Assembly (NCBI GenBank): GCA_050697275.1
Contig: JBOGZI010000160.1
Coordinates: 1 to 42,845, forward strand
DNA: 42,845 nucleotides
Reading direction: 5' to 3'
Origin: Solirubrobacterales bacterium
GTDB taxonomy: Bacteria > Actinomycetota > Thermoleophilia > Solirubrobacterales > 70-9
Shown: in pieces, positions 28,393 to 42,845 of the stretch
Layout of the letters: each line of letters begins with the position of its first letter
Position numbering within the stretch: position 1 is the first letter of the stretch
Made by a program: the position numbers and the translations under genes
The notes under the pieces: generated by a model
Database searches by the model: none
What the model saw: only the letters and a program-made list of their open reading frames with translations
What the model was told of the DNA's origin: nothing

Positions 28393-28516
28393 ACCTTGAT
28401 TATTGCGCTCGGAGAAGCCGGGGCCCTCCGGGCGGGTCGCCGCTCGGTGTAAGTTCCGCGATGGCCGTCCCACGGACCCGACGCGGAGGAGATGGCGAGC
28501 TTATGTTGGAGGAGAG

Positions 28517-30570: not shown

Positions 30571-32277
30571 GTGGAGGTGGGCACGAGCGAGGGGACGCCC
30601 CAGGCTCCGGCGGCGGCGCCTGCGGGGCCCCGCGCTCCGGGGGGGCCACCGGCCGTGGCCGTGCGGGGGCTGAGCAAGACCTTCCACGTCCCGCCGCAGC
30701 GCTACACGACCCTGAAGGAGCGCCTGGTCGACCGCTTCAGGCCCGAGCCCGCCGCCAGCCTGGAGGCGCTGCGCGACGTCAGCCTCGCGATCTCCAGGGG
30801 CGAGTTCGTGGGGATCGCAGGTCGGAACGGGAGCGGCAAGAGCAGCCTCCTTCGCTGCATCGCGGGGATCTACGACTACGACGAGGGCACCGTCGAGGTG
30901 AGCGGACGGCTGGCGCCCTTCGTCGAGCTGGGAGCGGGCTTCACGCCGGACCTGAGCGCGCGCGAGAACGCGGCCCTCGGCGCCGTGATGCTGGGGCTGA
31001 GCCGCGCCGAGGCGCGCCGGCGCGCCGAGCGCATCCTCGCCTTCGCCGGGCTCTCCGACCTCGCCGAGCTGGAGCTGCGCAACTTCTCCTCCGGGATGAA
31101 CGTCCGCCTGGCCTTCTCCGTCGCGATCCAGGTCGATGCCGAGGTGCTGCTGATCGACGAGGTCCTCACGGCCGGCGACTCCTCCTTCAAGCAGCGCTGC
31201 CACGACGAGCTCGAGCGGCTGCACTCCCGGGGACGGACGATCGTCTTCGTCACCCACTCGATGGAGGACCTGCAGCGCTACTGCACCAGGGCGCTGCTGC
31301 TCGAGCGTGGCGAGCTTCTCGCCGCCGGCCCACCCGAGCGGATCGCCGAGCAGTACGAGGAGGTGAACGCGCGGGAGACCGAGCGGCAGCGCCGGGAAGC
31401 GGAGTCCCCGGCCGCGGCGCGACTGGACCGCGAACCCGCCCCGGCGATCCAGCCGGAGCCCGCGACCTACCGCCCCACCGCCCTCGGGCGAAGTCTGAGG
31501 CGGCTGACGGAGCTGACCGCCAGCATGGCGATAACCGAGTTCCGGCTCAAGTACCACCGCTCGGCCCTGGGCTACCTGTGGTCGGTGATGCGGCCCGCGA
31601 TCTACTTCCTGGTGCTCCTGGTGATCTTCACCAAGGTGGCGAGGCTGGGGGCGTCCGTCTCGCACTACCCCGCCTATCTCGCGACGGCGATCGTCCTTTG
31701 GACGTTCTTCACCGAGACCGTCGCGGGCGGCGTCACCTCGCTGTCTCGGAACGGGCCGCTGCTGCGCAAGGTGCGCTTCCCCCGGCTGGCGATACCGCTG
31801 TCCCTCACGGTCAGCTCGCTGATCAACCTGGCGGCGAACTCGATCCTGGTGGTGGTCGTGCTGGCGGTCAGCGGGGTGGAGCCGCGCCTGAGCTGGCTTC
31901 AAATGCCGGCGCTGCTGGCGCTGCTGGCGCTGCTGGCGCTCGGCACGTCGATGCTGTTCTCGGCCCTTTACGTCCGCTACCGGGACATGCAGCAGGTGTG
32001 GCAGGTACTGAACCAGCTCCTCTTCTTCGGCTCACCGATCATCTACGTGGCCAGGCAGTACCCCGACGCGCTCGAGCCGCTGCTCTCGGCCAACCCGCTG
32101 GCCGCGATCCTCGTGCAGATGCGCCATGCGCTGATCGACCCCTCCGCCCCGACCGCCGCGGAGCAGCTCGGGGGCTGGCCGCAGCTGCTGATCCCCCTGG
32201 GGACGATCACGGCCGTCCTCGGACTCGGCTTCTGGCTCTTCACCCGTGAGGCGCCACGCGTGGCGGAGCGAACGTGA
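30571..32277 (+). CDS. Fused ABC-2 polysaccharide/glycolipid exporter: Wzt/TagH-like ATPase (N) + Wzm/TagG-like ABC-2 permease (C)
   Basis: 568 aa. Walker A GRNGSGKSS, signature FSSGMNVRL, Walker B LLIDEV, H-loop VTHS. A ~45-aa linker follows, then a 6-TM ABC-2 region (EFRLKYHRSALGYLWSVMRP...). Confidence 0.85.
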   Translation: MEVGTSEGTPQAPAAAPAGPRAPGGPPAVAVRGLSKTFHVPPQRYTTLKERLVDRFRPEPAASLEALRDVSLAISRGEFVGIAGRNGSGKSSLLRCIAGIYDYDEGTVEVSGRLAPFVELGAGFTPDLSARENAALGAVMLGLSRAEARRRAERILAFAGLSDLAELELRNFSSGMNVRLAFSVAIQVDAEVLLIDEVLTAGDSSFKQRCHDELERLHSRGRTIVFVTHSMEDLQRYCTRALLLERGELLAAGPPERIAEQYEEVNARETERQRREAESPAAARLDREPAPAIQPEPATYRPTALGRSLRRLTELTASMAITEFRLKYHRSALGYLWSVMRPAIYFLVLLVIFTKVARLGASVSHYPAYLATAIVLWTFFTETVAGGVTSLSRNGPLLRKVRFPRLAIPLSLTVSSLINLAANSILVVVVLAVSGVEPRLSWLQMPALLALLALLALGTSMLFSALYVRYRDMQQVWQVLNQLLFFGSPIIYVARQYPDALEPLLSANPLAAILVQMRHALIDPSAPTAAEQLGGWPQLLIPLGTITAVLGLGFWLFTREAPRVAERT

Positions 32278-32314
32278 TCCTGAGCCGACCCGTCCTCTCG
32301 TACGAGTCGAGTCG

Positions 32315-32674
32315 ATGACCGGGGCGGAGCCGCTGATCGTGAACCTGGCGCCGACGGGCATGGTCCCATCCAAGGAGATGACTCCGCCCCGGGACCAGGC
32401 CGGCGTCCCGACTCACCGCGCCGAGTGCTTCGCGCCGCTGATCGAGGGGATTCGCATGATCGATCGGGAGCTCATCGTCTGCGCGACGTGCAGCGGCAGG
32501 CTGGTCAGCGACGTGGACAGCCGGGCCGAGGTACTCACCCTCCAAGGCGACGCCAAGCCGGACATGGCCTCGCTCACGCTCGGCTCCAACAACTTCAGGA
32601 TGCGGTATGCATTGCCGTTGATCTCGTGCCCGTCTTTGGCAGTTACGACAACAGCTGGGAGGCGTTTGGGGTAG
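32315..32674 (+). pseudogene. Decayed fragment of a BKACE/DUF849 (3-keto-5-aminohexanoate cleavage enzyme family) gene
   Basis: MTGAEPLIVNLAPTGMVPSKEMTP ... IEGIR ... LVICATCSGR ... GDAKPDMASLTLGSNNF matches N-terminal blocks of the family. The segment that should hold the HxH metal site is missing, and the ORF stops ~170 aa short. Confidence 0.55.
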
Positions 32675-32796
32675 GCGTCGGCCTGCTTCTGGTCTTCGCC
32701 CTGCTGGTCGCGAGGGGGTCAGCTCAAGTCGAGAGCGAACGGGCAACTTGGACTGAGCTTTGGGAGCGAGACCGCGGATAGGCTCGTCTCGGGATC

Positions 32797-33651
32797 GTGA
32801 GTGTCAACAGGCGCCAGGATGCCCGCACCAACCCGAGCATCAGTGTGATTGTCCCCGCCTTCAACGAGGCGCAGCACATCGCTCGGTGTCTGAGGTCGCT
32901 CGAGCAACAAACCTGTCCGCCACGAGAAGTGATCGTGGTCGATGACGGCTCAAAGGACCGGACGGGCGTAATCGCGGCCTGGCATCGTGCGCGGGTGGTG
33001 AGAACCAGGCATTGCGGGCCTGCCCAAGCGAGGAATCTAGGAAGCAGCCTCGCCACTGGCGAACTCCTTGTCTTCCTTGACGCGGACATGGCATGTGGCC
33101 CCAGGTTCCTCGAGGAACTCGTCGGGCCTATATCCGATGGCCGAGCGATCGGCAGCTTTAGCAGAGAGCTGCACATCGGAAACCCAGAGAATCGGTGGGC
33201 GCGCGCCTACGCGACGATCCGACGTCACGCGTTTCCCAGAGTCTTGCCTTCGTCTCATCCAGGTGAGTCACCGAACTACCGAGCCATCCGGCGAGACGAT
33301 TTCCTGGCCGTCAACGGCTATGACGATGTTGGCTATGGCGAGGACATGACATTGGCGCCCAAGCTCGGCCGCCTAGCAGTCTGCGCTGATGGGGCTTACT
33401 GTGTGCATTTCAATCCAAGCTCGCTCTGGGAGATCTTCGAGAACGGTCGCTGGATCGGCCGCGGCCACGACATCGGCAACGTGTTCCATCCATGGTTCGA
33501 CAACCTTCCATTGAGGGCCGGGGTCTTGGCCTTTCGAGACCTCAGAAATGGCTGTGGTCCGGCGATCCTCCCAGCGCGCTTCGCCTACCACACGGGTCTC
33601 CTGGTGGGCCTCTGCCGACGGGCAGTGTGGCCCGATCGTCATTGGAAATAG
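32797..33651 (+). CDS. Glycosyltransferase family 2 (lower-GC island gene 1)
   Basis: GTG start, 284 aa. SVIVPAFNE, VIVVDDGSKDRT, FLDADM. GC is visibly lower than the flanks. Confidence 0.85.
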   Translation: MSVNRRQDARTNPSISVIVPAFNEAQHIARCLRSLEQQTCPPREVIVVDDGSKDRTGVIAAWHRARVVRTRHCGPAQARNLGSSLATGELLVFLDADMACGPRFLEELVGPISDGRAIGSFSRELHIGNPENRWARAYATIRRHAFPRVLPSSHPGESPNYRAIRRDDFLAVNGYDDVGYGEDMTLAPKLGRLAVCADGAYCVHFNPSSLWEIFENGRWIGRGHDIGNVFHPWFDNLPLRAGVLAFRDLRNGCGPAILPARFAYHTGLLVGLCRRAVWPDRHWK

Positions 33652-33674
33652 CCCCGATCTCTGAGGCTCCCGAG

Positions 33675-34580
33675 GTGAGCGTGATCATTCCCGCCTACCG
33701 AGCGGAGCACAGGATCTGTGTTGCCCTGGAGTCCCTGAGGCAGCAGGACTTCGAGGGACCTGTCGAGGTGATCGTGGTTGCGTCGGGCGCGGATGGTTCT
33801 GGCTCACTTGTTCGGCGCCTGTATCCCGAGGTCCAGGTCGCCGAGTTCCCGACCCGTGTGTGGCCAGGTTCAGCCCGCAATGTGGGTGTTCGGATGGCCC
33901 GCGGCGACGTAATTGCCTTCATGTCGGCGGACACATGCGCGTCGCGGAGTTGGCTCGCCGATCGTGTGCAGCTACATGCCGCAGGGTTCGACCTCGTGGG
34001 CGGATCGATCCTAAACGGCACTCCTACGCATCTGGTAGGGACGGCCGGCTACCTGCTCGAGTACTCAGGGCTCCTGCCGCTGGACGACTTGCTGCGCGAT
34101 CAGGTCATTCCACACGCCCTGTCATTCCGGAGAGCTGTGTTCGAACGCCTCGGTGAGTACTCCGAAGACACAAGAACGGGAGAGGACACGCTCTTCAACA
34201 AACGATGTCTGGAGTCCGGTATGACGATCGCGTTTGCACCACAGGCCGGGCTCACACACGACAACATCACCTCGGTAAAGGGAATGATCGGTCACGCGAT
34301 CGATCACGGGCGAGGTTTGGCGCAATGTGTGGAGCGGCACGGCTTCGCCTCGAGTATCGGGACGATGGATCAAGGCTTGATTACTGCCGGGTGGCGGATG
34401 CTGGTCGGGTATCCCGTGCTAGGAATGAGCGCGAGGCTTCGACGATTTGCACGGTTCGCGCCTCGCCAGCTGCCGGCGCTGCTGACCCTCATGCCGCTTA
34501 TTTGGATTGCACTGCTCGCGACCGGAGTTGGCGCGTACATCCACTACCTCAAGGTGCGGCAGCGGCACAGCCCTGCGTAG
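33675..34580 (+). CDS. Glycosyltransferase family 2 with C-terminal TM segment (lower-GC island gene 2)
   Basis: VSVIIPAYRAE..., VEVIVVASGADGS, FMSADT, GEDTLF, C-terminal hydrophobic LLTLMPLIWIALLATGVGAYI. Start is GTG 33675 or TTG 33642; the track start 33492 overlaps gene 1 and is rejected. Confidence 0.8.
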   Translation: MSVIIPAYRAEHRICVALESLRQQDFEGPVEVIVVASGADGSGSLVRRLYPEVQVAEFPTRVWPGSARNVGVRMARGDVIAFMSADTCASRSWLADRVQLHAAGFDLVGGSILNGTPTHLVGTAGYLLEYSGLLPLDDLLRDQVIPHALSFRRAVFERLGEYSEDTRTGEDTLFNKRCLESGMTIAFAPQAGLTHDNITSVKGMIGHAIDHGRGLAQCVERHGFASSIGTMDQGLITAGWRMLVGYPVLGMSARLRRFARFAPRQLPALLTLMPLIWIALLATGVGAYIHYLKVRQRHSPA

Positions 34581-34911
34581 GGTGCACCTGCAGCAGCGCC
34601 GCGCACTCGCTCCGGGTGCGCAGGGGGGCCGGGGCTCATGATGCCGCTCACCGCCGGGGCGCCCGCTCGGTGCGCCGCCAGCCGCCCAGCCGCCCAGCCG
34701 CGCTCCGCCCGGCAGTCGGCGGCCAGGAAGGAGACGTAAGGGGCGCTGGTGGCCGCGATTCCCAGGTTCCTGACCGCCCCGGGGAGGAGCCGCGCGGGAT
34801 GGGTGATCACGGGCACGTCGATGCCGGCATCGCGTAGCAGCCGTCCGGGTCGCCGCCTCCGGAGCTGACGACGACGATCTCGAGCGGTACGGCCTGAGGG
34901 AATCCAGCTTC
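34544..34911 (-). pseudogene. Frameshifted, N- and C-terminally truncated GT2 relic, paralogous to 33675..34580
   Basis: Minus frame 3 reads FPQAVPLEIVVVSSGGGDPDG. After a frameshift near 34840-34850 a second frame reads RLLRDAGIDVPVITHPARLLPGAVRNLGIAATSAPYVSFLAADCRAERGWAAGRLAAHRAGAPAVSG. This is colinear with FEGPVEVIVVASGADGSGSLVRRLYPEVQVAEFPTRVWPGSARNVGVRMARGDVIAFMSADTCASRSWLADRVQLHAAGFDLVGG of the neighbouring gene. The SVIIP N-terminal block is absent. Confidence 0.6.
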
Positions 34912-34932: not shown

Positions 34933-35655
34933 ATGCGCGGGAACGTCCGCCTGTTCGCTCTGACCGCGGTTCGAAACGAGATGCGCTACCTGCCCGGCTT
35001 CGTGGCCAACCTCGCCGCGCAGGTGGACGGGATCATCGTGCTCGACGATGGCTCGACCGATGGGTCGGCCGAGTATCTCGCCTCCCGGCCGGAGGTGATC
35101 GAGCTGCTTCGCGTCCCCCCCGACCGACCCGAGTGGGCTGAGGTGGAGAACCATCGCGCCCTGGTCGCGGGCTCCCTGCGCCACGGTGCGGAGTGGGTGC
35201 TCTCGGTGGACGCCGACCATCGACTCGAGCGCGAGTTCCGCAAGCGCTGCGAGCGGGTGATCCGAGACGGGGAGCCTTCCGGTCACATGGCCTACTCGGT
35301 CCCGCTGCGGGAGCTCTGGGGGTCGCCGCGCACCTACCGCGTCGACGGGATCTGGGGTCGTAAGAGGAGGGCGCGACTGTTCCAGGCTCGCGCGGACCAT
35401 GAGTTCGACACCAAGCCGCTGCACTCGATCAAGGCGCCGCTGCAGGCCCGCAAGGACGGCGAGATTCCGGTCGCCGACCTCGTCGTCTATCACCTGCGGA
35501 TGATCAGGCCTGAGGACCGGCGGAAGCGCAGGGAGCGCTACCAGGCGCTCGACCCGGAGGCGCGCTACCAACCGGGCCTCGGCTACGACTACCTGACCGA
35601 CGAGCGCGGGATCCGCCTCGAGCGGATCGGGCCGGACCGGGACTACGTCGAATGA
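34933..35655 (+). CDS. Glycosyltransferase family 2-like protein
   Basis: 240 aa. IIVLDDGSTDGS, SVDADH. Its stop overlaps the next start (ATGA at 35652-35655). Confidence 0.75.
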   Translation: MRGNVRLFALTAVRNEMRYLPGFVANLAAQVDGIIVLDDGSTDGSAEYLASRPEVIELLRVPPDRPEWAEVENHRALVAGSLRHGAEWVLSVDADHRLEREFRKRCERVIRDGEPSGHMAYSVPLRELWGSPRTYRVDGIWGRKRRARLFQARADHEFDTKPLHSIKAPLQARKDGEIPVADLVVYHLRMIRPEDRRKRRERYQALDPEARYQPGLGYDYLTDERGIRLERIGPDRDYVE

Positions 35656-36851
35656 GGCCCGAGGAGCCTCGGGTCTCGGTGATAGTTCCGACCTATCAGC
35701 GCCATGAACTGGTGCGGCGCGCCATCGGCAGCGTGGTCGCCCAGACCTATCGCGACTTCGAGCTGATCGTGGTGGACGACGGCTCCACGGACGGCACCGT
35801 CGAGATGCTGAAGTCGGTCGCGGAGGCGGAGCCCAGGTTGCGCTATCGCCGCCAGCCGAACCGCGGTGTCGCCGCGGCTCGCAACGCCGGCGTGCGCATG
35901 GCGAGAGGAGAGATCGTCGCGTTCCTCGACTCGGACGACCGCTGGCTTCCCGACCACCTGGCGTTGGTGACGGACGTCCTCGAGGGCCTGCCGGATGCGG
36001 TGCTCGTCTCCACCTGCCCCAGGTTCATCCTCGCCGGCAGCCAGCGGGCCGCCGACGCCCAGCTCGTGGACCACAGGCGGGGCCTTCTGTCGGAGGCCGC
36101 CTCGGCCGGATTCATGCCCTGCCTCGCGGTCAGGCGGCAGGCCCTGCTCGAGGTGGGGAGATTCGACGAGCGGCTTGGAGCCCTGGAAGACAGCGATCTG
36201 CTGCGCCGGCTCGCCACCACCGGTCCGTTCGCCCTGGTCAGCGGGCGGACGGTGGTCGCTCAGACGACCCCGGGGTCGCTTCGCGGGAGGGCGCGACGTC
36301 CGGGTACCTATCTCACCTCCGCCGAGATCAGCGCCAGGAACCTCGTCCAGGCGGTGGACCGGCTCCCGGAAGGGGAGAGGGCGCCGCTGGCCGCTGAGGC
36401 GATGGGCGTCGTCGACCTCGCTCATGCGATGCTCGCCCTCGATCGCGGGGACGACGCCGCGCTGAGGGCGGCGCTCGATCGGGCCTGCGCGGAGTTGCCG
36501 CTCTCGAGGTCCCCGACGATGATGGTTCACCGGGTGAAGAATCACCTTCGCCGGTGCGAGCAACCGCAGGAGCGCCTGCGGGTGCTGGTGGCGCTCACCT
36601 CGTGCTGGCCGAGTCCGCACTGTCTCACGGCCAGGTACCTCCGTGCCTGGGCGATCGGCCTGGCGCTGCGGCGCCTGCAGCTGCGGCTCGCGGTCCGGCT
36701 CCTAACCGGCTGGCGCCCGCGCGGGACACTCCCCTTCGTCCGCAGGGCCATCCCCTTGCTCCGTCTGAGAGCTCGCCGTTCCCGGCAGGACCGCCGGCAC
36801 CGCGGCCGGGCGGCGAGCCCGCTCGAAGCGGTGGGAGCGCAGCGTGAGTGA
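35652..36851 (+). CDS. Glycosyltransferase family 2 with ~200-aa Arg-rich C-terminal extension
   Basis: VSVIVPTYQRHELVRRAIGSVVAQTYRDFELIVVDDGSTDGT, RNAGVRMARGEIVAFLDSDD. The N-terminal ~110 aa are paralogous to the next gene. It overlaps that gene by 8 nt. Confidence 0.85.
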   Translation: MRPEEPRVSVIVPTYQRHELVRRAIGSVVAQTYRDFELIVVDDGSTDGTVEMLKSVAEAEPRLRYRRQPNRGVAAARNAGVRMARGEIVAFLDSDDRWLPDHLALVTDVLEGLPDAVLVSTCPRFILAGSQRAADAQLVDHRRGLLSEAASAGFMPCLAVRRQALLEVGRFDERLGALEDSDLLRRLATTGPFALVSGRTVVAQTTPGSLRGRARRPGTYLTSAEISARNLVQAVDRLPEGERAPLAAEAMGVVDLAHAMLALDRGDDAALRAALDRACAELPLSRSPTMMVHRVKNHLRRCEQPQERLRVLVALTSCWPSPHCLTARYLRAWAIGLALRRLQLRLAVRLLTGWRPRGTLPFVRRAIPLLRLRARRSRQDRRHRGRAASPLEAVGAQRE

Positions 36852-39618
36852 GGCCCCGTCCGTATCGGTGGTGATCCCCACCCATCAACGCCGCGATCTG
36901 GTGCGCCAGGCGGTGCGCAGCGTCCTCGCTCAGACCTACCGCGACTTCGAGCTGATCGTGGTGGACGACGGCTCCAGCGACGGGACCCGCGAGGCCCTGG
37001 ACGGGCTGGACCCGAGGATCCGCTACCGGTGGCAGCCGAACCGGGGAGCGGGCGCCGCCCGTAACGCCGGCTTGCGGCTGGCCCGGGGCTCGATCGTCGC
37101 CTTCCTGGACTCGGACAACCTCTGGACTCCCGAGCACCTCGAGACGCTGACCCGGGCGCTCGAGGGGCACCCGGAGGCGGACATCGCCTACACGGGGCTG
37201 GGCCGTGCTGGGGGCGAAACCCGAGTCAAGGCCCCGATCGCCGACCTGCTTCATGGAAACATCGTTCCCTTCACCTCGGGAGTGGCGCTGCGCCGGGAGG
37301 TGGCCCTCGGGGCAGATGGCTTCGACGAGCGGTTGGCGGTGGGCGAGGACGCGGACCTCTGGATGCGGCTCGCGCTGCGAGGCTCGCGCTTCGCGATCCC
37401 GCCGCAGCGCACGGTGATTCGCCGCGCGATCCGGAATTCCCTCACCAGTGAGCGGGGAACCGGCGACTACGCGGAGGCCGCCGAGATCGGCGCCCGGCGT
37501 GCGATCGCCGAGCTGGAGGGCGCACGGGGAGAGGAGGCGGCGCGCCGCCTAGCCCTAGCCCGCGGGCGCTACGCGCTGATCGAGGCCGTGCGCGCGCTCG
37601 GCACGGACGACGGGGATGAGCTGAGGCGGAAGCTCCGAGAGGCGTGCAGGCTGCTGCCGGAGCTGGCCGAGCACCCCCGATCGGTGGCCAGTCACATCCG
37701 GTACGACCTGCCGAGCTCGGCCAAGCGCTCCGAAGTCGCGGCCCGATTGGCCGGGGTCGCGCGCGCCTGGCCGCTGCCCCGCTCCGATCCCTCGCGCGTC
37801 TTGGCGGCCGAGGCCCTGGTCGAGGCCGGCCTGAGCGGGCGTCCCCGCGAGATCGCGCGAACCGCTCGCGCCGCGCCCACCGGCCCGGCGCTTCCGTTCA
37901 TCGTCGGTGAGCTGCGGGCCGCCGCCCGCGCTCGGATCCGCGAGGAGCTGCGCGCTCGAATGGACCGGGCCCGAGGATTGCGAGCACGCCCGCAACGGTT
38001 GGATCTCACGGCCCAGCGCCTCCTGGTTCGCATCGCCAACGGGCTCCTGGCCGGGGTGAGCCGGCGCGGCTACGAGGCTCTGGCTCGGGTGGCCGCGTCC
38101 TACCTGGTCGCCGGAACCGGAGCCGCCGCGTATCTCAAGGGCAGCGTCGGCAGGGGCGAGCCGCTCTACGGCGTCTCGGACATCGATCTCGCGATCGTGC
38201 TCCCCGGCGGCGTCGGCGACGAGGCGATCGAGCGCCGGATCAACGATCGCTGGCGCCGCCTCCGCGGTCGCCTGCCGACGCTGTGCCGTGCCCTGTTCGA
38301 ACGGCCGCGCATCTACAGGCGAGAGGAGCTGAGCGCCAGCACGCTCCTCCACGGGCTGAGCGCGGACCGGGACCACTGGCGCCCACGGCCTTCCTCCAGG
38401 GAGCGCCGCCGCGAGCGGGGCGGCTCGGAGCGGCCCGGACTGTACGGGCCCGCCCCTGACTGGCGCCGGATCCGCGGGCGCGAGACGGCCGTGCCGCCGA
38501 GGGCCTGGGCGGATGCGGGCGAGCTCTGGCCGGCCGCCTGGCTGGAGCTCCAGTTCTGGTGGCTTCAGGCTTTCAAGGCATGCGCCAGCCCGGACGCCCT
38601 CTGGAAGCGGTATCTGTGCGCGAAGCTGGTGCTCGAGCCGGCGCGCGTCTGGCTCTGGGTGGCGCACGGTGAGCGGCCGGAGAGCTGGCAGGAGCTCGCT
38701 CGGAGGGCGTCCGCGAGGCTTCCCGAGGAGGCGCCGGCGCTGCGAGGCGCCCTCGCCTTGCGGGACTCGATCAGCCGGTCAGTGCGGGTGCCCCTCGGCG
38801 CCTCGCTTGCGGCGTTGGCGCGCATCTCGGATCGGGTTGCGGCCGAGCTCACTGCGCCCGTCCAGTCGAGCGCGGCCACCCAGGTCCGTCTGCGCTGGGG
38901 CGGTGCCGGTGAGATCGTCACCGACGCCGACACCGACGCAGCGGGGACGGGGGCGGCGCTCGGCTGCGGCCCGGCATCGCCGCCGCTGCCGCTGGTCGAC
39001 TGGAGGGCACGCGTCTGGTCGGGACCGCCCGATGAGGCCCTGAGCCCGATCCCCGGAGATCTCGACCCGGCCCTGCTCGGGGCGGCCGCCCACGAGGGCG
39101 ATGCGGGCGCCTACCCGGCCCTGCGTTGCGGCGGGCTCCTGCTCCTGCCCTCGCTGAAGCGGGCAAGGTTGCGGGCCGTTCAATGTGCCGCCACCGACCC
39201 GGTTTCGTTCGCGCTGCTCGATGGATCCGATTGGGCCGAGTTCCCCGACATCCCAGGATGGTCCGTCCAGGACTCCGCCCGCCGGGCGGTCGCCGAGCAT
39301 CTGGGCGCGCTGGAGCGGCTCGAGGCCGGCGGCGATCCCGATGGGGAGGCTCTGGGCAGGCTGTTCACCGCAGCCCGGGCGGCGAACCTGCTGGAGGGCA
39401 TCCACTCCGGGCAGCCAGAGCTCGACCTGACCGTCGCCGCGATCGCCGCTCGGCTGCGCGGCTCTCCCTCGGTGGGCTCGGGACTCGCCGATCAGGCGCT
39501 GGCGGAGCTGCGACGCTCCAGGATCCACCGCGAGCCTCCCGATGCCGCCCTGGTCGACGCCCTGCGGCGGGGGGTCGCCGCCCTGCCCGCCTTCAAGCTC
39601 GGGCTCGAGCGCCGGTGA
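36844..39618 (+). CDS. Multidomain protein: N-terminal GT2 domain + central Pol-beta-type nucleotidyltransferase motif + ~450-aa uncharacterised C-terminal region
   Basis: 924 aa. GT2: VSVVIPTHQRRDLV...YRDFELIVVDDGSSDGT...FLDSDN (aa ~6-215). NTase signature GSVGRGEPLYGVSDIDLAIV at aa 433-452 (nt 38140-38199). I recognise no family in the remainder. Confidence 0.8.
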   Translation: MSEAPSVSVVIPTHQRRDLVRQAVRSVLAQTYRDFELIVVDDGSSDGTREALDGLDPRIRYRWQPNRGAGAARNAGLRLARGSIVAFLDSDNLWTPEHLETLTRALEGHPEADIAYTGLGRAGGETRVKAPIADLLHGNIVPFTSGVALRREVALGADGFDERLAVGEDADLWMRLALRGSRFAIPPQRTVIRRAIRNSLTSERGTGDYAEAAEIGARRAIAELEGARGEEAARRLALARGRYALIEAVRALGTDDGDELRRKLREACRLLPELAEHPRSVASHIRYDLPSSAKRSEVAARLAGVARAWPLPRSDPSRVLAAEALVEAGLSGRPREIARTARAAPTGPALPFIVGELRAAARARIREELRARMDRARGLRARPQRLDLTAQRLLVRIANGLLAGVSRRGYEALARVAASYLVAGTGAAAYLKGSVGRGEPLYGVSDIDLAIVLPGGVGDEAIERRINDRWRRLRGRLPTLCRALFERPRIYRREELSASTLLHGLSADRDHWRPRPSSRERRRERGGSERPGLYGPAPDWRRIRGRETAVPPRAWADAGELWPAAWLELQFWWLQAFKACASPDALWKRYLCAKLVLEPARVWLWVAHGERPESWQELARRASARLPEEAPALRGALALRDSISRSVRVPLGASLAALARISDRVAAELTAPVQSSAATQVRLRWGGAGEIVTDADTDAAGTGAALGCGPASPPLPLVDWRARVWSGPPDEALSPIPGDLDPALLGAAAHEGDAGAYPALRCGGLLLLPSLKRARLRAVQCAATDPVSFALLDGSDWAEFPDIPGWSVQDSARRAVAEHLGALERLEAGGDPDGEALGRLFTAARAANLLEGIHSGQPELDLTVAAIAARLRGSPSVGSGLADQALAELRRSRIHREPPDAALVDALRRGVAALPAFKLGLERR

Positions 39619-40451
39619 TGCTGCCGAACCTGGTCGTGATCGGCGCCCGGAAGGGCGGCACGACCAGCCTCTATCACTACCTGCGCCATCACCCCGAGGT
39701 CACCATGTCCCGCGAGAAGGAGCTTCGCTTCTTCGTCAGACCCGAGCGGTGGCGACTTGGTCCGGACTGGTACGCCGGGCACTTCGCGGATGCCCGCACC
39801 CCCATTCGAGGCGAGGTCTCCCCCCAGTACACGGCCTACCCACGCGAGCCGAGGGTCGCGGAGCGCATGCACAGCATCCTCCCCGACACCAAGCTGATCT
39901 ACATGGTGCGGGACCCGATCGAGCGAATCGTCTCCGCCTACGTCGCCAGGTACGCCGAACGCGAGGAGCACGAGCCCTTCGCCGAAACGGTGCTTTCCGA
40001 CGGGAAGGGTCTCTACGTCAACGAGAGCTCGTACCACATGCAGCTCGAGCGGTACCTCCGCCACTATTCGCTGGAGCGGATCCTGATCATCAGCCAGGAG
40101 GAGCTGCTCCGGGCACGCCGGCGCACGCTCCGCACGATCTTCCGGTTCCTGGGTGTGAATCCCTCCTTCGACAGCCCGCGCTTCGATCACATGAGCAACC
40201 ACTGGAGCCACCTGCGGCGAGTGAGGGGACCCCGCTGGCTCTCGGTCGGGCCGAACCCGAAGGCGACCGGCCGCCTGCCATGGAAGGTCCGGGCGCGGGT
40301 GAAGCGTGCCCTCTACCGACCGCTGTCGAGGCGAGTTGATCGGCCGGTCATCGATCCGGCCGTACGCGAGGCGCTGGCCGAGCGGCTCTCGCCGGACGTC
40401 GAGCGCCTGCGGCGGCTGACGGGCCGAAGCTTCGAGGAGTGGTCGATCTAG
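39618..40451 (+). CDS. PAPS-dependent sulfotransferase family protein
   Basis: ATG 39618 shares one base with the upstream TGA (gTGATG); the track start 39126 is rejected. 5'-PSB loop VVIGARKGGTTSL and 3'-PB motif YMVRDPIERIVSAY. 277 aa. Confidence 0.85.
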   Translation: MLPNLVVIGARKGGTTSLYHYLRHHPEVTMSREKELRFFVRPERWRLGPDWYAGHFADARTPIRGEVSPQYTAYPREPRVAERMHSILPDTKLIYMVRDPIERIVSAYVARYAEREEHEPFAETVLSDGKGLYVNESSYHMQLERYLRHYSLERILIISQEELLRARRRTLRTIFRFLGVNPSFDSPRFDHMSNHWSHLRRVRGPRWLSVGPNPKATGRLPWKVRARVKRALYRPLSRRVDRPVIDPAVREALAERLSPDVERLRRLTGRSFEEWSI

Positions 40452-40571
40452 TGGCCTCCCACCGATCGCGCCAGGCCGCGCTGCTCCAGCAGTCGGGCGA
40501 AGCCGCCGACGGCTTCCACGACCACGGCTGCGCTCAACTCCGCTCCCGGGTGGCCGCGGAGGCCGGAATGC

Positions 40572-41669
40572 GTGGCAATCAGGCTCCCGGTCGCCTCCAT
40601 CCGGCCCAGCGTAGTCATACTGCCTGCCTTGGGGCCGAGAGCTCGTACAAGCCCGGCCGTCAGCGACGACGCGGTCGGGACGTCGGTCGATCTCGACCTC
40701 TACGGGTTGGGCGCCCGCATCAGCGGGGACTGGCCGGAGGTGGTGGAGAGCCTGCGGCTCGACTTCGCCTGGTTCGCGCGGCCGCTCGCGGTCGCGCCTC
40801 AGCTCGAGGTGGTGATCGAGCGCCGACCGCCGGAGCTCGACTCCATGGGGAACCTGAGCGCGAGCTTCGTCACCCCCCGGAACGTCGTCTACCAGGACGG
40901 CGGCCGGACCGTGATCGACTACTTCGGCCAGGCGGTCTCGGTGCTGGACCGGGCGGCGCAGCGCCTGGTGATCCAGGGCGAGGACGAGGGCGTCCTCCAC
41001 CAGGCCGGCTACCTCTTCCTGCTTTCGCGACTGGGCGAGCATCTCGACGCGCGCGGGCTGCCCAGGCTTCACGGCCTGGGGTTGGCGGGGGCGGACGGCG
41101 GGGTTGTCACCCTCCTGCCCTCGGGCGGGGGCAAGACCTCACTCGCGCTGGAGGCCCTGCGCTCCTCGGGAGTGAAGCTGATCTCGGAGGACAGCCCCCT
41201 GATCGATCGACGTGGCCGGCTCCATCCGCTCCCGCTACGCATCGGCATCCACCCGGACGAGGCGGCGCGGGTCGGCGAGCAGGACCTGCGGAGAATCGAC
41301 CGGATGGAGTTCGGCCCCAAGCTCGCGATCGAGGTGAGCAGCTTTCGGGATCGAATTGCGACCGAGCCGGTGCCGCTGCGCCACCTGGTCATCGGCCAGC
41401 GCCGGCTCGGCACGGAGGCGCGGCTGGAGCAGGTCCCCCGCCGGGTCGCGATCGGGCCGCTGTTTCGCGAGGCGGTCGTCGGCGTCGGCCTCTACCAGGG
41501 GATGGAGTTCGTGCTCCAGCGGGGGATCAGCGACGTCCGCCATCACGCCGGGACGGCGATCATGCGGGCCCTGTGGTGCGCGATCGGACTGGGGCAGGCG
41601 AAGGTGTGGCGCCTGGAGACGGGACGCGACCACGAGCGCAACTGGGCGGCCCTGCGGCGGCTGCTGTGA
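40572..41669 (+). CDS. HPr kinase/phosphorylase C-terminal-domain-like P-loop protein (HprK-related kinase)
   Basis: P-loop LLPSGGGKTSLALEAL followed by LISEDSPLI, the arrangement seen in HprK C-domain relatives. There is no N-terminal HprK domain. The start is uncertain between GTG 40572 (track) and TTG 40629. Confidence 0.7.
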   Translation: MAIRLPVASIRPSVVILPALGPRARTSPAVSDDAVGTSVDLDLYGLGARISGDWPEVVESLRLDFAWFARPLAVAPQLEVVIERRPPELDSMGNLSASFVTPRNVVYQDGGRTVIDYFGQAVSVLDRAAQRLVIQGEDEGVLHQAGYLFLLSRLGEHLDARGLPRLHGLGLAGADGGVVTLLPSGGGKTSLALEALRSSGVKLISEDSPLIDRRGRLHPLPLRIGIHPDEAARVGEQDLRRIDRMEFGPKLAIEVSSFRDRIATEPVPLRHLVIGQRRLGTEARLEQVPRRVAIGPLFREAVVGVGLYQGMEFVLQRGISDVRHHAGTAIMRALWCAIGLGQAKVWRLETGRDHERNWAALRRLL

Positions 41670-41690: not shown

Positions 41691-42845
41691 GTGGGCGCCA
41701 CGGATGCATCCGCCCGCCGCCGGAAGTGGTGGGGGTGGGGATACGAGGACCAGCAGGCGGACCGGGCGACGCTCGAGGGGATCGCCGCGGGGGTTCGTGA
41801 CCGTCTCGGCTTCGAGGTCTCGGAGATCGAGGATCCCGTCCCGCTCGAGGCGATCGAGCTGCCCGAGCCGCGGCTGCGCGCGCCGGAGGAGCTGGCCGAC
41901 ATGTTCTCGGCCGGCCGCTACGAGCGCGTCGCCCACGCGCTCGGCAAGGCCTATCGCGACGTGGTGCGCGGCTTTCGCGGAGAGTTCGCCAACCCCCCCG
42001 ATCTGGTCGCATACCCGCGCTCGCCCGAGGACGTCGACGCCGTCCTCAACTACTGCGTCGATGCGGGCGCGGCGGCGATCCCCTATGGCGGCGGCACCAG
42101 CGTCGTCGGAGGGGTCGAGCCGCGGATGCGAGACGAGTACCCCGCGGTGGTCTCAATCGACCTCGGCCGGATGAACCGCGTGCTCGAGGTGGACGCGACC
42201 TCGCAGGCGGCCCGGATCCAGGCGGGGGCCACCGGGCCGGAGCTCGAGGAGCAGCTGCGCGAGCACGGGCTCACCCTGCGCCACTTCCCGCAGTCGTTCG
42301 AGTACTCGACCCTGGGCGGCTGGATCGCGACTCGGGCCGGCGGGCACTTCGCGACGCTCTACACCCACATCGACGACCTGGTGGAGTCGGTGCGGGCGAT
42401 CACCCCGGCCGGGGAGTGGCGCAGCCGGCGGCTGCCCGGCTCCGGCGCCGGCCCCAGCCCCGATCGGATGCTGATCGGCTCCGAGGGGATCCTCGGGGTG
42501 ATCGTCGAGGCCTGGATGCGGGTGCGCGAGCGCCCCACCCACAAGCTCAGCTGCGGGGTCGCCTTCGACGACTTCGCGGCGGGCGCCGAGGCGGTGCGCG
42601 AGATCTCCCAGTCCGATCTGCATCCCTCCAACTGCCGGCTGCTGGACGCGATCGAGTCGGAGACGACCTCGGCCGGCCCGCCCGGGAAGTCCCTGCTCGT
42701 GCTCGGCTTCGAGTCCGCCCACCATCCCGTCGACGGGCCGATGCAGCTCGCTCTCGAGGCGGCGCGCGGCCACGGCGGCGAGCCCGGCGAGCTCAAGGGG
42801 GGCGGCGGCACGGGCGGCGACGCTGACCGGTCCGGTCGCCAGGCC
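41691..42845 (+). CDS. FAD-linked oxidase, alkyl-DHAP synthase (AGPS)-like; 3' end outside window
   Basis: It is not in the ORF track because it has no stop in the window. GTG 41691 is the first start after an in-frame TGA, and the frame is open for 385 codons to base 42845. Motifs: RRKWWGWGYEDQ (cf. the KWNGWGY motif of AGPS), IPYGGGTSVVGG, FPQSFEYSTLGGWIATRAGGHFATLYTHIDDLV, GSEGILGVI. Confidence 0.8.
   Translation, partial: MGATDASARRRKWWGWGYEDQQADRATLEGIAAGVRDRLGFEVSEIEDPVPLEAIELPEPRLRAPEELADMFSAGRYERVAHALGKAYRDVVRGFRGEFANPPDLVAYPRSPEDVDAVLNYCVDAGAAAIPYGGGTSVVGGVEPRMRDEYPAVVSIDLGRMNRVLEVDATSQAARIQAGATGPELEEQLREHGLTLRHFPQSFEYSTLGGWIATRAGGHFATLYTHIDDLVESVRAITPAGEWRSRRLPGSGAGPSPDRMLIGSEGILGVIVEAWMRVRERPTHKLSCGVAFDDFAAGAEAVREISQSDLHPSNCRLLDAIESETTSAGPPGKSLLVLGFESAHHPVDGPMQLALEAARGHGGEPGELKGGGGTGGDADRSGRQA

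Follow-up and report, generated by a model that had tools for sequence, protein, structure and literature searches.

We read the locus described here, with a probability of about 0.55, as a cell-surface or envelope polysaccharide cluster of an uncultured soil actinobacterium, linked to an ABC exporter and directing synthesis of an amino-sugar glycopolymer that is probably sulfated. The reading draws on gene content, family and fold assignments, synteny, gene fusions and scars observed at the locus, which lies in a stretch of 42,845 nt analyzed as a whole (the window). The cluster carries a gene for a sugar sulfotransferase together with a kinase-like and nucleotidyltransferase-like gene pair that is conserved in the host's class, most likely Thermoleophilia. 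The region does not belong to a peptide-antibiotic or ribosomal-peptide pathway, and this copy of the cluster is partly decayed.

By Pfam searches the glycan-type genes of the window are five GT2 genes, one ABC-2 exporter and one sulfotransferase (Table 1); genes for an initiating phosphoglycosyl transferase, for PAPS synthesis and for lipid-carrier enzymes are all absent from the window. Four overlapping plus-strand genes encode, in order, a GT2, a second GT2, a GT2 fused to a nucleotidyltransferase-like module and the sulfotransferase, and the gene of a P-loop protein comes next. This chain had been described earlier in a sequence-only reading; Pfam agrees with it, with a weak match for the first GT2 and an NTP_transf_2 match just above cut-off. 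The junctions reported there were also recovered by direct reading: ATGA at 35652-35655; a GTG start at 36844 inside the end of the preceding gene, whose TGA occupies 36849-36851 (8-nt overlap, 36844-36851); and TGATG at 39616-39620. Stop/start overlaps are commonplace in high-GC operons; thus, taken alone, the overlapping junctions are no more than chance expectation.

Table 1. Genes and gene relics of the locus, with window coordinates
Feature	Coordinates	Strand	Evidence
Fused ABC exporter, 568 aa, N-terminal ATP-binding and C-terminal ABC-2 membrane domain	30571..32277	+	Pfam ABC_tran 1.7e-20, ABC2_membrane 2.2e-13
Truncated beta-keto acid cleavage enzyme (BKACE) gene; rearrangement scar, not a working part	32246..32674	+	Pfam BKACE 4.4e-11
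GT2 glycosyltransferase, 284 aa, low GC3	32797..33651	+	Pfam Glycos_transf_2 4.1e-32
GT2 glycosyltransferase, low GC3	33492..34580	+	Pfam Glycos_transf_2 1.6e-20, domain from aa 63
Small GT2-like glycosyltransferase, 240 aa, Glyco_tranf_2_4 type, first gene of the chain	34933..35655	+	Pfam Glyco_tranf_2_4 5.5e-9 (weak)
GT2 glycosyltransferase (GT2_d), 399 aa	35652..36851	+	Pfam Glycos_transf_2 3.2e-37
924-aa fusion: GT2 (aa 1-~230), helical linker, ~540-aa nucleotidyltransferase-like module	36844..39618	+	Pfam Glycos_transf_2 1.1e-34, NTP_transf_2 1.8e-4
PAPS-type carbohydrate sulfotransferase, 277 aa	39618..40451	+	Pfam Sulfotransfer_1 6.6e-16, Sulfotransfer_3 4.3e-15
Phosphohexomutase relic, 5' end, 56 codons; deletion scar	40448..40621	-	BLASTP against intact PGM_PMM of L005
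P-loop kinase-like protein, PEP-carboxykinase/HprK fold, 346 aa	40629..41669	+	TTG start 40629 (database gene call); Foldseek, AF2 model

On the cytoplasmic side of the membrane, the several GT2 enzymes would assemble the glycan; two of these enzymes resemble the two halves of chondroitin/heparosan-type synthases. The best solved relative of GT2_d is the E. coli K4 chondroitin synthase (4.3e-29, both GT2 domains matched), with heparosan synthase B at 1.4e-14; the GT2 part of the 924-aa fusion (GT2_e) is closest to chondroitin synthase as well (1.3e-22). These likenesses may be just an effect of the small number of solved GT2 structures. Two related proteins, P0122 (1,352 aa) and P0124 (1,252 aa), join the counterpart of GT2_d to the counterpart of the next gene's product, giving GT2-GT2-nucleotidyltransferase as a single polypeptide. 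Homologues of the chain's first gene (51-64% identity) lie ~6 kb or less from a kinase-like gene in loci L013, L021, L040, L044, L045 and L144, and at 10 kb in L037.

Sulfate would then be added to the glycan, probably at an amino sugar, by the sulfotransferase, which has a 5'-phosphosulfate-binding loop GARKGGTTS at about 39642-39668 and whose nearest solved relatives are the animal heparan sulfate glucosamine 3-O-sulfotransferases (3-OST-1/3/5; 2e-24) and the NDST sulfotransferase domain. Its orthologues (52-56% identity) come after the GT2-nucleotidyltransferase gene in L003, L005, L006 and the P0123 contig, and the order of fusion, then sulfotransferase, holds in all contexts with intact flanks.

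Export of the glycan is predicted to occur via the fused ABC-2 transporter, which is 71% identical to its counterpart in the syntenic locus L003. In NCBIfam its ATP-binding domain comes nearest to galactan-export Wzt/RfbE (168.7 bits against a cut-off of 400) and teichoic-acid TagH, and neither match reaches its cut-off. General background on ABC-transporter-dependent glycan assembly can be found in PMC11231755. The exporter gene ends at 32277, 2.66 kb upstream of the GT2 chain; both this spacing and the Pfam domains bear out the earlier placement of a fused ABC-2 exporter 2.7 kb away.

Between exporter and chain lie two GT2 genes of low GC3 and a fragment of a further GT2 gene, besides the truncated BKACE gene. 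The BKACE relic covers only positions 48-116 of the 274 in the Pfam profile, and in L003 an intact BKACE gene stands after the exporter. GC3 of the first GT2 gene (32797..33651), probably a foreign insert, is 0.70 versus 0.87-0.95 in neighbouring genes; GC3 of the second is 0.69-0.72, and its true start is probably near 33650-33670. We read the two together as a GT2 pair of foreign origin that was probably inserted here. A second scar lies between the sulfotransferase and P-loop genes. The 120-nt gap reported there is in fact occupied by the minus-strand phosphohexomutase relic, whose product, aligned from its initiator Met for 56 aa, is 57% identical to the L005 PGM_PMM (E 3e-14). At the same site L003, L005, L006 and L077 carry an intact mutase and a NeuD-type sugar acetyltransferase. 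The deletion took out these amino-sugar precursor genes, and the closeness of the sulfotransferase and kinase-like genes in the window is its product. The P-loop gene, split by this scar from the GT2 chain, abuts an alkyl-DHAP-synthase-like gene: 21 nt separate its stop from the first start codon (41691) of that ORF. Given three gene relics in the locus, the original product may no longer be made.

Could the whole arrangement be an accident of decay, with a deletion placing by the sulfotransferase a P-loop gene that serves the alkyl-DHAP-synthase-like neighbour or nothing, and with the GT2 chain being an ordinary polysaccharide operon? The scar, the truncated BKACE gene and GT2 fragment, the foreign low-GC3 GT2 genes and the 21-nt spacing would suit such an origin, as would the presence of a sulfotransferase within 10 kb of the kinase-like gene (used as the anchor) in only 1 of 69 genome loci. 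We consider it very unlikely, however: the genes shared one cluster already before the deletion, in the order still seen in L005 and L006; the grouping of kinase, nucleotidyltransferase, ABC-2 and GT2 genes is found in dozens of loci; and the core genes are all intact, with coding-type GC3.

Evidence for the pair comes from both of its members. The P-loop gene probably starts at TTG 40629, where the database call begins, with the previously proposed GTG 40572 as an alternative. Its product has a Walker A motif LPSGGGKT at about 41115-41138 and an acidic E-D pair at about 41187-41192; both are invariant in the kinase-like family (P-loop and D188 across 26 sequences). The protein has no match whatever in Pfam, Hpr_kinase_C included, and reaches 13 bits against NCBIfam HprK_rel_B (cut-off 200), so that its former designation as an HprK-C-domain-like protein was not sustained. 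Sub-threshold matches to HprK_rel_B (best 4.5e-6) and HprK_rel_A (best 7.6e-7) are present in 23 and 20, respectively, of the 26 family members. The AF2 model (pLDDT 85.8) has PEP carboxykinases as top PDB matches (Foldseek E 2e-10, query TM 0.57). The relationship to HprK extends no closer than the shared HprK/PEPCK superfamily. Homologue clusters of this protein number >1,084, all unnamed; every member of the kinase-like and nucleotidyltransferase-like families is unnamed and comes from an uncultured organism.

The nucleotidyltransferase-like module of the fusion (about 37990-39615) has the Pol-beta GS…DxD motif at about 38119-38223, and the two aspartates of its DxD, D64 and D66, do not vary across 42 family sequences. 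The family is unannotated; its 543 representatives are for the most part free-standing proteins 520-570 aa long, but the module is repeatedly fused to one or two GT2 domains. The NTP_transf_2 match at aa 426-460 (22.2 bits) just passes the cut-off of 21, as anticipated from the motif; NTP_transf_5, the lasso-type family also considered, gave no match, and we rejected that identity in favour of a separate unannotated family. The family profile matches the minimal nucleotidyltransferase AF0614 (1.3e-3). In Foldseek searches with the AF2 model (pLDDT 87) the top matches are the aminoglycoside nucleotidyltransferases AadA/ANT(9) (probability 0.99, weak E of 0.1, target TM 0.52), while the C-terminal half of the model found no structural match. 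The invariant motifs of the two families and the confident models of both proteins make catalytic activity plausible.

The two genes occur together repeatedly. In 27 of 44 fully flanked genome loci, mostly from class Thermoleophilia, the kinase-like gene has a nucleotidyltransferase-like gene no more than 10 kb away (often adjacent, ≤200 bp in 10 loci); about 40% of the loci have none at this distance, and 24 have ABC-2 homologues within 10 kb. Of 35 metagenome contigs (≥5 kb) selected reciprocally by the nucleotidyltransferase-like gene, 17 also encode the kinase-like protein. Unbiased ORF clustering of 76 loci plus the window placed kinase-like proteins in 67 sources, nucleotidyltransferase-like in 39, GT2 in 38 and ABC-2 in 35; it detected no conserved small ORF or small protein partner near the pair. 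In relatives the pair neighbours Wzt/TagH-like ABC-2 exporters and glycosyltransferases, with extra genes for a GlmM-like mutase, a NeuD/PglB/VioB sugar acetyltransferase (above cut-off), TupA-type ATP-grasp proteins, GT4s, epimerases and AsnB-type amidotransferases. More distant kinase-like genes adjoin ABC-2 transporter genes, a GT2 and an FAD oxidase (L067, Omnitrophota, 32% identity) or a nucleotidyltransferase-like gene (L076, Terriglobia, 34%). The recurrent unit is the kinase and nucleotidyltransferase pair; the synteny expected of the trio with sulfotransferase extends to the pair, and the trio itself is rare.

We infer the substrate, reaction order and chemistry of the pair by analogy with the lasso-peptide enzymes PsmK and PsmN. 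The PEPCK/HprK-fold kinase would phosphorylate a hydroxyl group, either on the glycan or on the residue that ends it; the Pol-beta-type protein, GT2-fused in the window, would extend the phosphorylated site with a nucleotidyl group or a phosphodiester-linked substituent, thus decorating the glycan or capping the chain. In the model system, PsmK, of the HprK family, phosphorylates a hydroxyl, and a hexose is then put on the phosphate by PsmN, an uncharacterised nucleotidyltransferase with modelled likeness to aminoglycoside nucleotidyltransferases (PMC6993621). The sequence-only reading had proposed a glycoconjugate both sulfated and phosphorylated or nucleotidylylated, and such tailoring is consistent with all the evidence.

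It is unlikely that the pair instead makes an activated donor, a small molecule or sugar being phosphorylated and then nucleotidylylated for the GT2s or a phosphotransferase, in the logic of LicA/LicC or of a salvage pair of sugar-1-kinase and pyrophosphorylase, with the polymer untouched. The pair does adjoin precursor-pathway genes (GlmM-like mutase, NeuD-type acetyltransferase) in L005, L006, L026 and L003, and the authors of the PsmN study allow that the product of PsmN may serve a host glycosyltransferase as substrate (PMC6993621). The PEPCK fold is also typical of small-molecule kinases. However, the closest folds to the module, aminoglycoside nucleotidyltransferases, act on hydroxyls of finished sugars, and repeated fusion to GT2 domains is more typical of enzymes sharing an acceptor; known sugar-1-phosphate and CDP-alcohol nucleotidylyltransferases have a fold other than that of Pol-beta-type enzymes.

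A regulatory role, in which the kinase would phosphorylate a serine of an assembly or export protein and its partner nucleotidylylate a protein, tuning glycopolymer output, appears to us quite unlikely. HprK acts on HPr, and tyrosine autokinases tune other polysaccharide pathways; within the HprK branch, all members characterised so far have proteins or peptides as substrates, the HprK_rel_A/B matches are weak but consistent across the family, and the kinase-like gene is often directly beside an ABC-2 exporter (10 loci, ≤200 bp). Still, no conserved small protein partner was found near the pair, fusion to GT2 catalytic domains favours tailoring, and several kinase-like paralogues occur per genome, each in a separate glycan cluster, a better fit to substrate-specific tailoring than to a general regulator.

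Some lasso clusters do carry genes for a kinase, a nucleotidyltransferase and a sulfotransferase (PMC8498205, PMC6993621), as the sequence-only reading had stated, and the window stops inside a gene on a contig that extends no further. Yet lasso or RiPP tailoring, with core genes past the right edge or elsewhere in the genome, is close to refuted. No sizeable ORF of the window encodes a lasso or RiPP protein, and, as already noted from the letters, neither Asn-synthase-like cyclase, transglutaminase-like protease, PqqD nor conserved small ORF was found in the window; the same search was negative around 69 genome loci (20-kb neighbourhoods) and in five professionally called contexts, and about 150 related loci showed no RiPP core. 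The Asn_synthase genes of seven loci have a full glutamine-amidotransferase domain and are thus AsnB-type enzymes. The carbohydrate type of the sulfotransferase also argues against a lasso product, as does the missing match to Hpr_kinase_C or NTP_transf_5; what had looked like the same tailoring trio in a new context is an analogy, not shared family membership.

With PsmK/PadeK and PsmN (pseudomycoidin, paeninodin; PMC6993621, PMC8498205) the window's pair shares the combination of an HprK/PEPCK-superfamily P-loop kinase with a Pol-beta-type, aminoglycoside-nucleotidyltransferase-like enzyme, an acidic pair after the P-loop (DD in PsmK, E-D here), a DxD that is essential in PsmN and invariant in the window's family, a nearby ABC exporter and sometimes a sulfotransferase. 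It differs in lacking precursor, cyclase, protease and RRE, in its glycosyltransferase and sugar-precursor neighbours, in the ~540-aa size of the PsmN-like protein (a large extra C-terminal half, often GT2-fused) and in lineage, Thermoleophilia versus Firmicutes or Proteobacteria. The HprK-related kinases A (TIGR04352) and B (TIGR04355) are matched by most members around the P-loop, although scores stay at about 13-30 bits where the cut-offs are near 200, and no PqqD-type chaperone or ATP-grasp/amphipathic partners are located nearby. AadA, ANT(9) and ANT(4'), which move NMP onto a sugar hydroxyl, are structurally the nearest to the N-terminal ~280 residues of the module, at only 12-18% identity; the window's family is double their size and found in biosynthetic instead of resistance contexts.

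The glycosaminoglycan polymerases KfoC (E. coli K4) and Pasteurella heparosan synthase resemble the window's system in that its two GT2 modules match both KfoC domains best, are fused in relatives and are accompanied there by amino-sugar precursor genes. In contrast, identities are low and the matches of the GT2s are of a generic kind; neither a UDP-glucose dehydrogenase gene nor any Kps-type gene was seen, and K4 and K5 capsules are unsulfated.

The synechan cluster of Synechocystis is reportedly Wzx/Wzy-dependent, unlike the ABC-2-linked locus of the window. This cluster (xss) is a bacterial sulfated exopolysaccharide cluster (PMC8205485), and wps-1 of Actinoplanes missouriensis, described as Wzx/Wzy-dependent, encodes a sulfotransferase of the heparan-sulfate type as well as a kinase-like protein (PMC13390465). 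Both combine glycosyltransferases with PAPS-type sulfotransferases, as the window does; wps-1 is, in addition, actinobacterial, with a kinase-like tailoring protein, though one of protein-kinase-like fold for which no nucleotidyltransferase-fold partner is described.

Finally, the kinase/methyltransferase WbdD of E. coli O9a with Wzm/Wzt, and teichoic-acid export by TagGH, are cases of ABC-dependent glycan assembly with terminal capping. The window departs from them in having no initiating transferase, an exporter that is one fused polypeptide without a recognised carbohydrate-binding module, and a PEPCK/HprK-fold kinase partnered by a nucleotidyltransferase-fold protein, versus the eukaryotic-like kinase fold and methyltransferase of WbdD. 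Like them, it has an exporter of ABC-2 type whose ATP-binding domain is Wzt/TagH-like, in a locus that combines multi-domain glycosyltransferase fusions with a kinase that could cap or decorate the chain.

We derived the gene order of the window (G+C content ∼70%) from frame-specific GC3 combined with Pfam matches. The glycan block and its flanks are listed in the table; the remaining genes are of housekeeping type (ferritin, arginase, decarboxylase, sigma factor, aconitase and a large 2-oxoglutarate dehydrogenase fusion). The three gene junctions reported in the sequence-only reading proved exact on direct reading: ATGA at 35652, GTGAGTGA at 36844-36851 and TGATG at 39616-39620. No initiating glycosyl-phosphate transferase of the WecA/MraY or WbaP type was found among the window ORFs scanned; for this glycan it may be encoded elsewhere. 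Genes of ether-lipid type, the reductase fusion and the flavoenzyme, stand on either side of the glycan block. The 2-oxoglutarate dehydrogenase fusion (23670-28052, minus strand) is a 1,460-aa polypeptide with two lipoyl domains, an E3-binding domain, an E2 acyltransferase core and a complete E1, the latter being 2-oxoglutarate dehydrogenase by its E1_dh, Transket_pyr and OxoGdeHyase_C domains; with E2o and E1o all in one chain, it is a fuller fusion than the corynebacterial OdhA type.

Genes of the glycan block and its flanks in the window.
Feature	Position	Strand	Basis
Fatty-acyl-reductase/SDR fusion	28403-30532	+	NAD_binding_4 + SDR; NCBIfam PRK07201, 974 bits
Fused ABC_tran + ABC2_membrane exporter	30571-32277	+	Pfam
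Truncated beta-keto acid cleavage enzyme (BKACE) gene	32246-32674	+	Pfam
GT2	32797-33651	+	Pfam
GT2	∼33492-34580	+	Pfam
GT2 fragment	34544-34816	-	
Small GT2, Glyco_tranf_2_4 type	34933-35655	+	Pfam
GT2 (GT2_d)	35652-36851	+	Pfam
924-aa protein: N-terminal GT2 (GT2_e) + marginal NTP_transf_2 match, residues 426-460	36844-39618	+	Pfam
Sulfotransferase	39618-40451	+	Pfam
Phosphohexomutase relic, first 56 codons	40448-40621	-	Likeness to the gene of related locus L005
P-loop (kinase-like) protein	40572 or 40629 to 41669	+	
Alkyl-dihydroxyacetone-phosphate-synthase-like flavoenzyme, cut by window end	41691-42845	+	PDB 2uuu, 2.6e-56

The P-loop gene had been read from the sequence as starting at 40572; the database gene call begins at TTG 40629 (346 aa), a start that fits the divergent arrangement of mutase and kinase-like genes in relatives. 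Its earlier label, HprK-C-domain-like, did not hold: the ORF had no Pfam match, and against NCBIfam HprK_rel_B it scored 13.4 bits with a cut-off of 200 (the curated cut-offs for HprK-related kinases A and B are ∼200 bits). Searches of PDB sequences, with the protein alone and as a profile, gave nothing beyond a designed P-loop peptide. When 26 aligned family members (57-70% identity) were scanned one by one, sub-threshold matches appeared to HprK_rel_B in 23 of them (best 4.5e-6) and to HprK_rel_A in 20 (best 7.6e-7), and a single member touched Pfam Hpr_kinase_C, at E 0.12. The Walker A motif P164-S-G-G-G-K169 and Asp188 are invariant in this alignment, as are many other positions, and Glu187 is nearly so; from position, we infer that the E187-D188 pair is the counterpart of the DD in HprK and in the pseudomycoidin (lasso-peptide) kinase PsmK.

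The AlphaFold (AF2) model of this protein (pLDDT 85.8, pTM 0.83) has the two-domain fold with a P-loop nucleotide-binding domain that defines the PEPCK/HprK-like superfamily, and in Foldseek searches both domains matched ATP- and GTP-dependent PEP carboxykinases (E 2e-10 to 5e-8, probability 1.00, TM 0.5-0.57 on the query). Given this confident PEPCK-like model and the sub-threshold HprK_rel matches, we place the product, as a distant relative, in the PEPCK/HprK P-loop kinase superfamily. Membership in HprK, in HprK_rel_A/B or among the lasso kinases was rejected, all scores being far under the family cut-offs. At 90% identity the family falls into at least 1,084 clusters, with most best matches ∼60% identical and all members listed annotated as ‘hypothetical’; the closest homologue (71% identity) lies on a 3-kb contig between a BKACE fragment and a PALP enzyme.

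The second partner is the nucleotidyltransferase-like module formed by residues ∼383-924 of the 924-aa protein (37990-39618), which defines an unnamed family with 543 representatives at 50% clustering (296 under 1e-30). Members mostly stand alone, at 520-570 aa; a minority have one or two GT2 domains fused N-terminally, and only a few proteins, P0122-P0127, share the full 924-aa architecture. The G-S...D-x-D motif by which the Pol-beta-type superfamily is recognized is kept in the 42 aligned members: D64 and D66 are invariant, and G61, S63, D64 and D66 as a set are invariant or nearly so. The module scored 22-23 bits against Pfam NTP_transf_2 (cut-off 21), a family matched by 23 of the 42; none of the 42 matched NTP_transf_5, with E up to 5, which we take to be the family of PsmN, the pseudomycoidin nucleotidyltransferase. 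The family profile found the minimal nucleotidyltransferase AF0614 in the PDB (1.3e-3). In the model of the module (pLDDT 87.3, pTM 0.89) the first ∼280 residues resembled the aminoglycoside nucleotidyltransferases AadA/ANT(9), with a probability of 0.96-0.99 but weak E of 0.1-0.3 (TM 0.5 on the target, 0.28 on the query), and no Foldseek match covered the C-terminal half. A ‘P..DWR’ motif, highly conserved in the family, occurs once per half of the module (residues ∼154-160 and ∼335-339). Internal duplication of the protein was considered and rejected, as hhalign of its two halves was not significant.

Conservation of the pair was assessed in 69 independent genome loci anchored on the kinase-like gene, almost all of them from Thermoleophilia MAGs (Solirubrobacterales, Thermoleophilaceae, Gaiellales), the class to which the window presumably belongs as well. 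Neighbours were counted by tblastn with reference proteins within 10 kb in the 44 fully flanked loci. The nucleotidyltransferase-like gene was present in 27 of the 44, conservation of gene order in relatives being a check that the sequence-only reading had proposed; at 10 loci overall the two genes are no more than 200 bp apart. An ABC-2 exporter was found in 24 (it is also syntenic in related locus L003) and recognisable GT2 genes in 22. Unbiased all-against-all clustering of six-frame stop-to-stop ORFs from 76 loci and the window ranked the neighbours in the same order (kinase 67, nucleotidyltransferase-like 39, GT2 38, ABC-2 35). Reciprocally, of 35 metagenome contigs that were anchored on the nucleotidyltransferase-like gene and span at least 5 kb, 17 also have the kinase-like gene, often adjacent. 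Other recurring neighbours were GT4 enzymes, an epimerase/dehydratase, a PRK07208-type FAD oxidase and AsnB-type amidotransferases with a full GATase domain.

Kinase-like homologues with 32-36% identity occur in Omnitrophota, Planctomycetota and Terriglobia. In an Omnitrophota locus (L067) the gene adjoins ABC-2 transporter genes, a GT2 and an FAD oxidase, and in a Terriglobia locus (L076) it adjoins the nucleotidyltransferase-like gene (32-34% identity in both), so the association extends beyond Actinomycetota. Several genomes carry two paralogous kinase-like copies in different glycan neighbourhoods (L012/L026 on CAWGTC010000006.1, L021/L060, L054/L055), which suggests one copy per polymer.

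Of the trio that the sequence-only reading had put together (nucleotidyltransferase, sulfotransferase and kinase), the kinase/nucleotidyltransferase pair recurs; the sulfotransferase does not, being within 10 kb in only one of the 69 kinase-anchored loci and confined to a sub-clade. There it lies immediately 3′ of the GT2-nucleotidyltransferase gene in the window, in L003 and on the P0123 contigs. L006 has the same arrangement with the GT2 and the nucleotidyltransferase encoded by two genes, and L005 appears to share it, its upstream gene being cut by the contig end; on the P0122 contig a TupA-type ATP-grasp gene is inserted before the sulfotransferase. More distant sulfotransferase-like genes adjoin the pair in four further loci (L091, L102, L123, L124).

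The enzymes around the pair point to the nature of the product. The sulfotransferase matched Sulfotransfer_1 at 58.9 bits (cut-off 22) and has a predicted 5'-phosphosulfate-binding loop, K-G-G-T-T-S, at residues 12-17. Because among solved structures it is closest to heparan-sulfate glucosamine 3-O-sulfotransferases 1, 3 and 5 (2e-24 to 6e-16; the 3-OST-1 match at 2e-24 spans residues 2-190) and the NDST sulfotransferase domain, it is predicted to be a carbohydrate-type enzyme. GT2_d and GT2_e best matched both GT2 domains of the Escherichia coli K4 chondroitin synthase KfoC (4.3e-29 and 1.3e-22), followed by PglI-type transferases and heparosan synthase B; since few GT2 structures exist, we give this likeness modest weight. 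In two relatives of the 924-aa protein, P0122 (1,352 aa) and P0124 (1,252 aa), GT2_d, GT2_e and the nucleotidyltransferase-like module form one polypeptide, which links the three activities. The exporter unites ABC_tran and ABC2_membrane in one protein, as expected of ABC-dependent assembly, and its ATP-binding domain is closest in NCBIfam to the galactan exporter Wzt/RfbE and to TagH, under the equivalog cut-offs.

The copy of the cluster in the window is rearranged and partly eroded, with core genes intact, as indicated by a mutase relic, a truncated BKACE gene, a GT2 pair of low GC3 and a GT2 fragment. The 120-nt gap previously seen before the kinase-like gene is not empty: the minus strand carries the 5′ end of a phosphohexomutase gene. 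Its 56 codons, read from the initiator methionine, share 57% identity with the product of an intact gene at the same position in L005 (E 3e-14). This relic marks a deletion of the mutase and of a NeuD-type acetyltransferase, both intact in L003, L005, L006 and L077. In the closest long relatives, L005 and L006, the sulfotransferase gene is succeeded by at least one lineage-specific gene and then by genes for a NeuD-type acetyltransferase, a GlmM-like mutase, the kinase-like protein, an FAD oxidase, a 489-aa unknown protein and a GT2. The window has lost what stood between sulfotransferase and kinase-like gene, namely the acetyltransferase and most of the mutase, and it differs in the genes downstream of the kinase-like gene. 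The 489-aa protein is conserved and had no Pfam or NCBIfam match (L005:6494-7963 and L006:11147-12613, both plus strand). The BKACE gene after the exporter, truncated in the window, is intact in L003, and the two GT2 genes at 32797-34580 have a GC3 of 0.70 compared with 0.87-0.95 for their neighbours and a genome norm of ∼0.9; the 32246-34816 region looks like a foreign insertion that broke the ancestral exporter-BKACE-GT2 order of L003. There is a small probability that, in this decayed copy, the kinase gene is functionally uncoupled from the rest.

Could the region be a lasso-peptide or other RiPP cluster? The absence of a lasso cyclase, B1/B2 protease, PqqD protein and precursor from the window, noted earlier by eye, was borne out by the Pfam scan of its ORFs, in which no lasso or RiPP protein appeared and no ORF matched Asn_synthase, the domain of an Asn-synthetase-like macrolactam synthetase. 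Nor did gene calls from five related contexts contain a Pfam family for an RRE/PqqD-like B1 protein, B2 protease or precursor. All clusters of conserved small ORFs from the 76 loci and the window showed antisense-type base composition, and none the coding type. Among the profiles proposed for the gene products, NTP_transf_2, Sulfotransfer_1 and GT2 were matched; no above-threshold match was obtained to Hpr_kinase_C, HprK_rel_A/B or NTP_transf_5. Membership of the pair in the lasso families was rejected on the missing NTP_transf_5 match, the single Hpr_kinase_C contact and the sub-threshold HprK_rel_A/B scores. On the DNA of the window, which makes up the whole contig, and of the related loci, we consider a RiPP (lasso) cluster nearly excluded.

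Asn_synthase genes are present in seven related loci (L010:9043-10833, plus strand, and six others; Asn_synthase 2e-97), beside an ABC-2 exporter and the nucleotidyltransferase-like gene, and could pass for lasso cyclases. They carry a full GATase_7 domain (1e-47), which identifies them as AsnB-type amidotransferases; these probably amidate uronic acids.

Every recurring neighbour of the pair is a gene of glycan biosynthesis or glycan export. With such neighbours, a carbohydrate-type sulfotransferase and amino-sugar precursor genes in relatives, we read the region as part of an ABC-exporter-linked cell-envelope glycopolymer cluster predicted to make a sulfated polymer that probably contains an amino sugar. 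Within such a cluster the pair could itself make an activated precursor, which we regard as unlikely, or it could regulate the machinery by modifying a protein, which appears less probable still.

For the role of the pair in tailoring a glycopolymer, the lasso peptide pseudomycoidin supplies the analogy. PsmK, of the HprK family with a DD metal site, phosphorylates the terminal serine hydroxyl (PMC6993621; reviewed in PMC8498205). PsmN, an uncharacterised nucleotidyltransferase with a modelled likeness to aminoglycoside nucleotidyltransferases and an essential DxD (PMC6993621), is required for adding one or two hexoses onto the PsmK-made phosphate (PMC6993621; PMC8498205). By analogy, the kinase would phosphorylate a glycan hydroxyl and the nucleotidyltransferase-fold enzyme would build on the phosphorylated site, as a decoration or as a chain cap. 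Carried furthest, at a probability of roughly one in four, this proposal holds that the pair constitutes an undescribed two-enzyme module which would phosphorylate a sugar hydroxyl of a nascent ABC-exported glycopolymer and then attach a phosphodiester substituent or nucleotidyl cap; its carriers would be Thermoleophilia and, more distantly, Omnitrophota, Planctomycetota and Terriglobia. In the sub-clade of the window the module would be joined to a dual GT2 polymerase resembling chondroitin synthase and to a sulfotransferase of the heparan-sulfate type, and the product would be a sulfated, phosphorylated glycosaminoglycan-like wall polymer of a soil actinobacterium.

Both families of the pair are nameless in Pfam and NCBIfam; the tailoring proposal offers them a testable role, in a pair conserved across an abundant, almost uncultured class of soil actinobacteria. 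Polysaccharides of bacteria are rarely sulfated, and those that are attract interest as replacements for glycosaminoglycans of animal origin; the coupling of a heparan-sulfate-type sulfotransferase to chondroitin-synthase-like GT2 enzymes makes a useful enzyme lead despite any decay of this copy. Experiments are warranted by the conservation of the pair and by the sulfated glycosaminoglycan-like theme; an inferred function, uncultured organisms and a partly eroded locus weigh on the other side.

Polysaccharide clusters with ABC-2 exporters and multi-domain GT2 enzymes are ordinary. Sulfotransferases in such bacterial clusters are uncommon but on record, as in synechan biosynthesis (PMC8205485), and the wps-1 cluster of Actinoplanes combines a heparan-sulfate-type sulfotransferase with a protein-kinase-like gene (PMC13390465). 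In the literature searched we met no glycan cluster in which a PEPCK/HprK-fold kinase is described as the partner of a Pol-beta-type nucleotidyltransferase, nor, among the papers listed, any mention of an HPr kinase in ABC-transporter-dependent glycan pathways. The sulfotransferase and the ABC-2/GT2 parts are of known kinds; the kinase/nucleotidyltransferase pair is the part of the cluster not yet described. To our knowledge, one lasso peptide is the only product for which the logic of a kinase followed by a nucleotidyltransferase-fold transferase has been demonstrated; if our reading is true, this logic would be extended from peptides to polysaccharides and may clarify the actual role of PsmN-type enzymes, the module being the polysaccharide counterpart of the phospho-glycosylation of lasso peptides by PsmK and PsmN.
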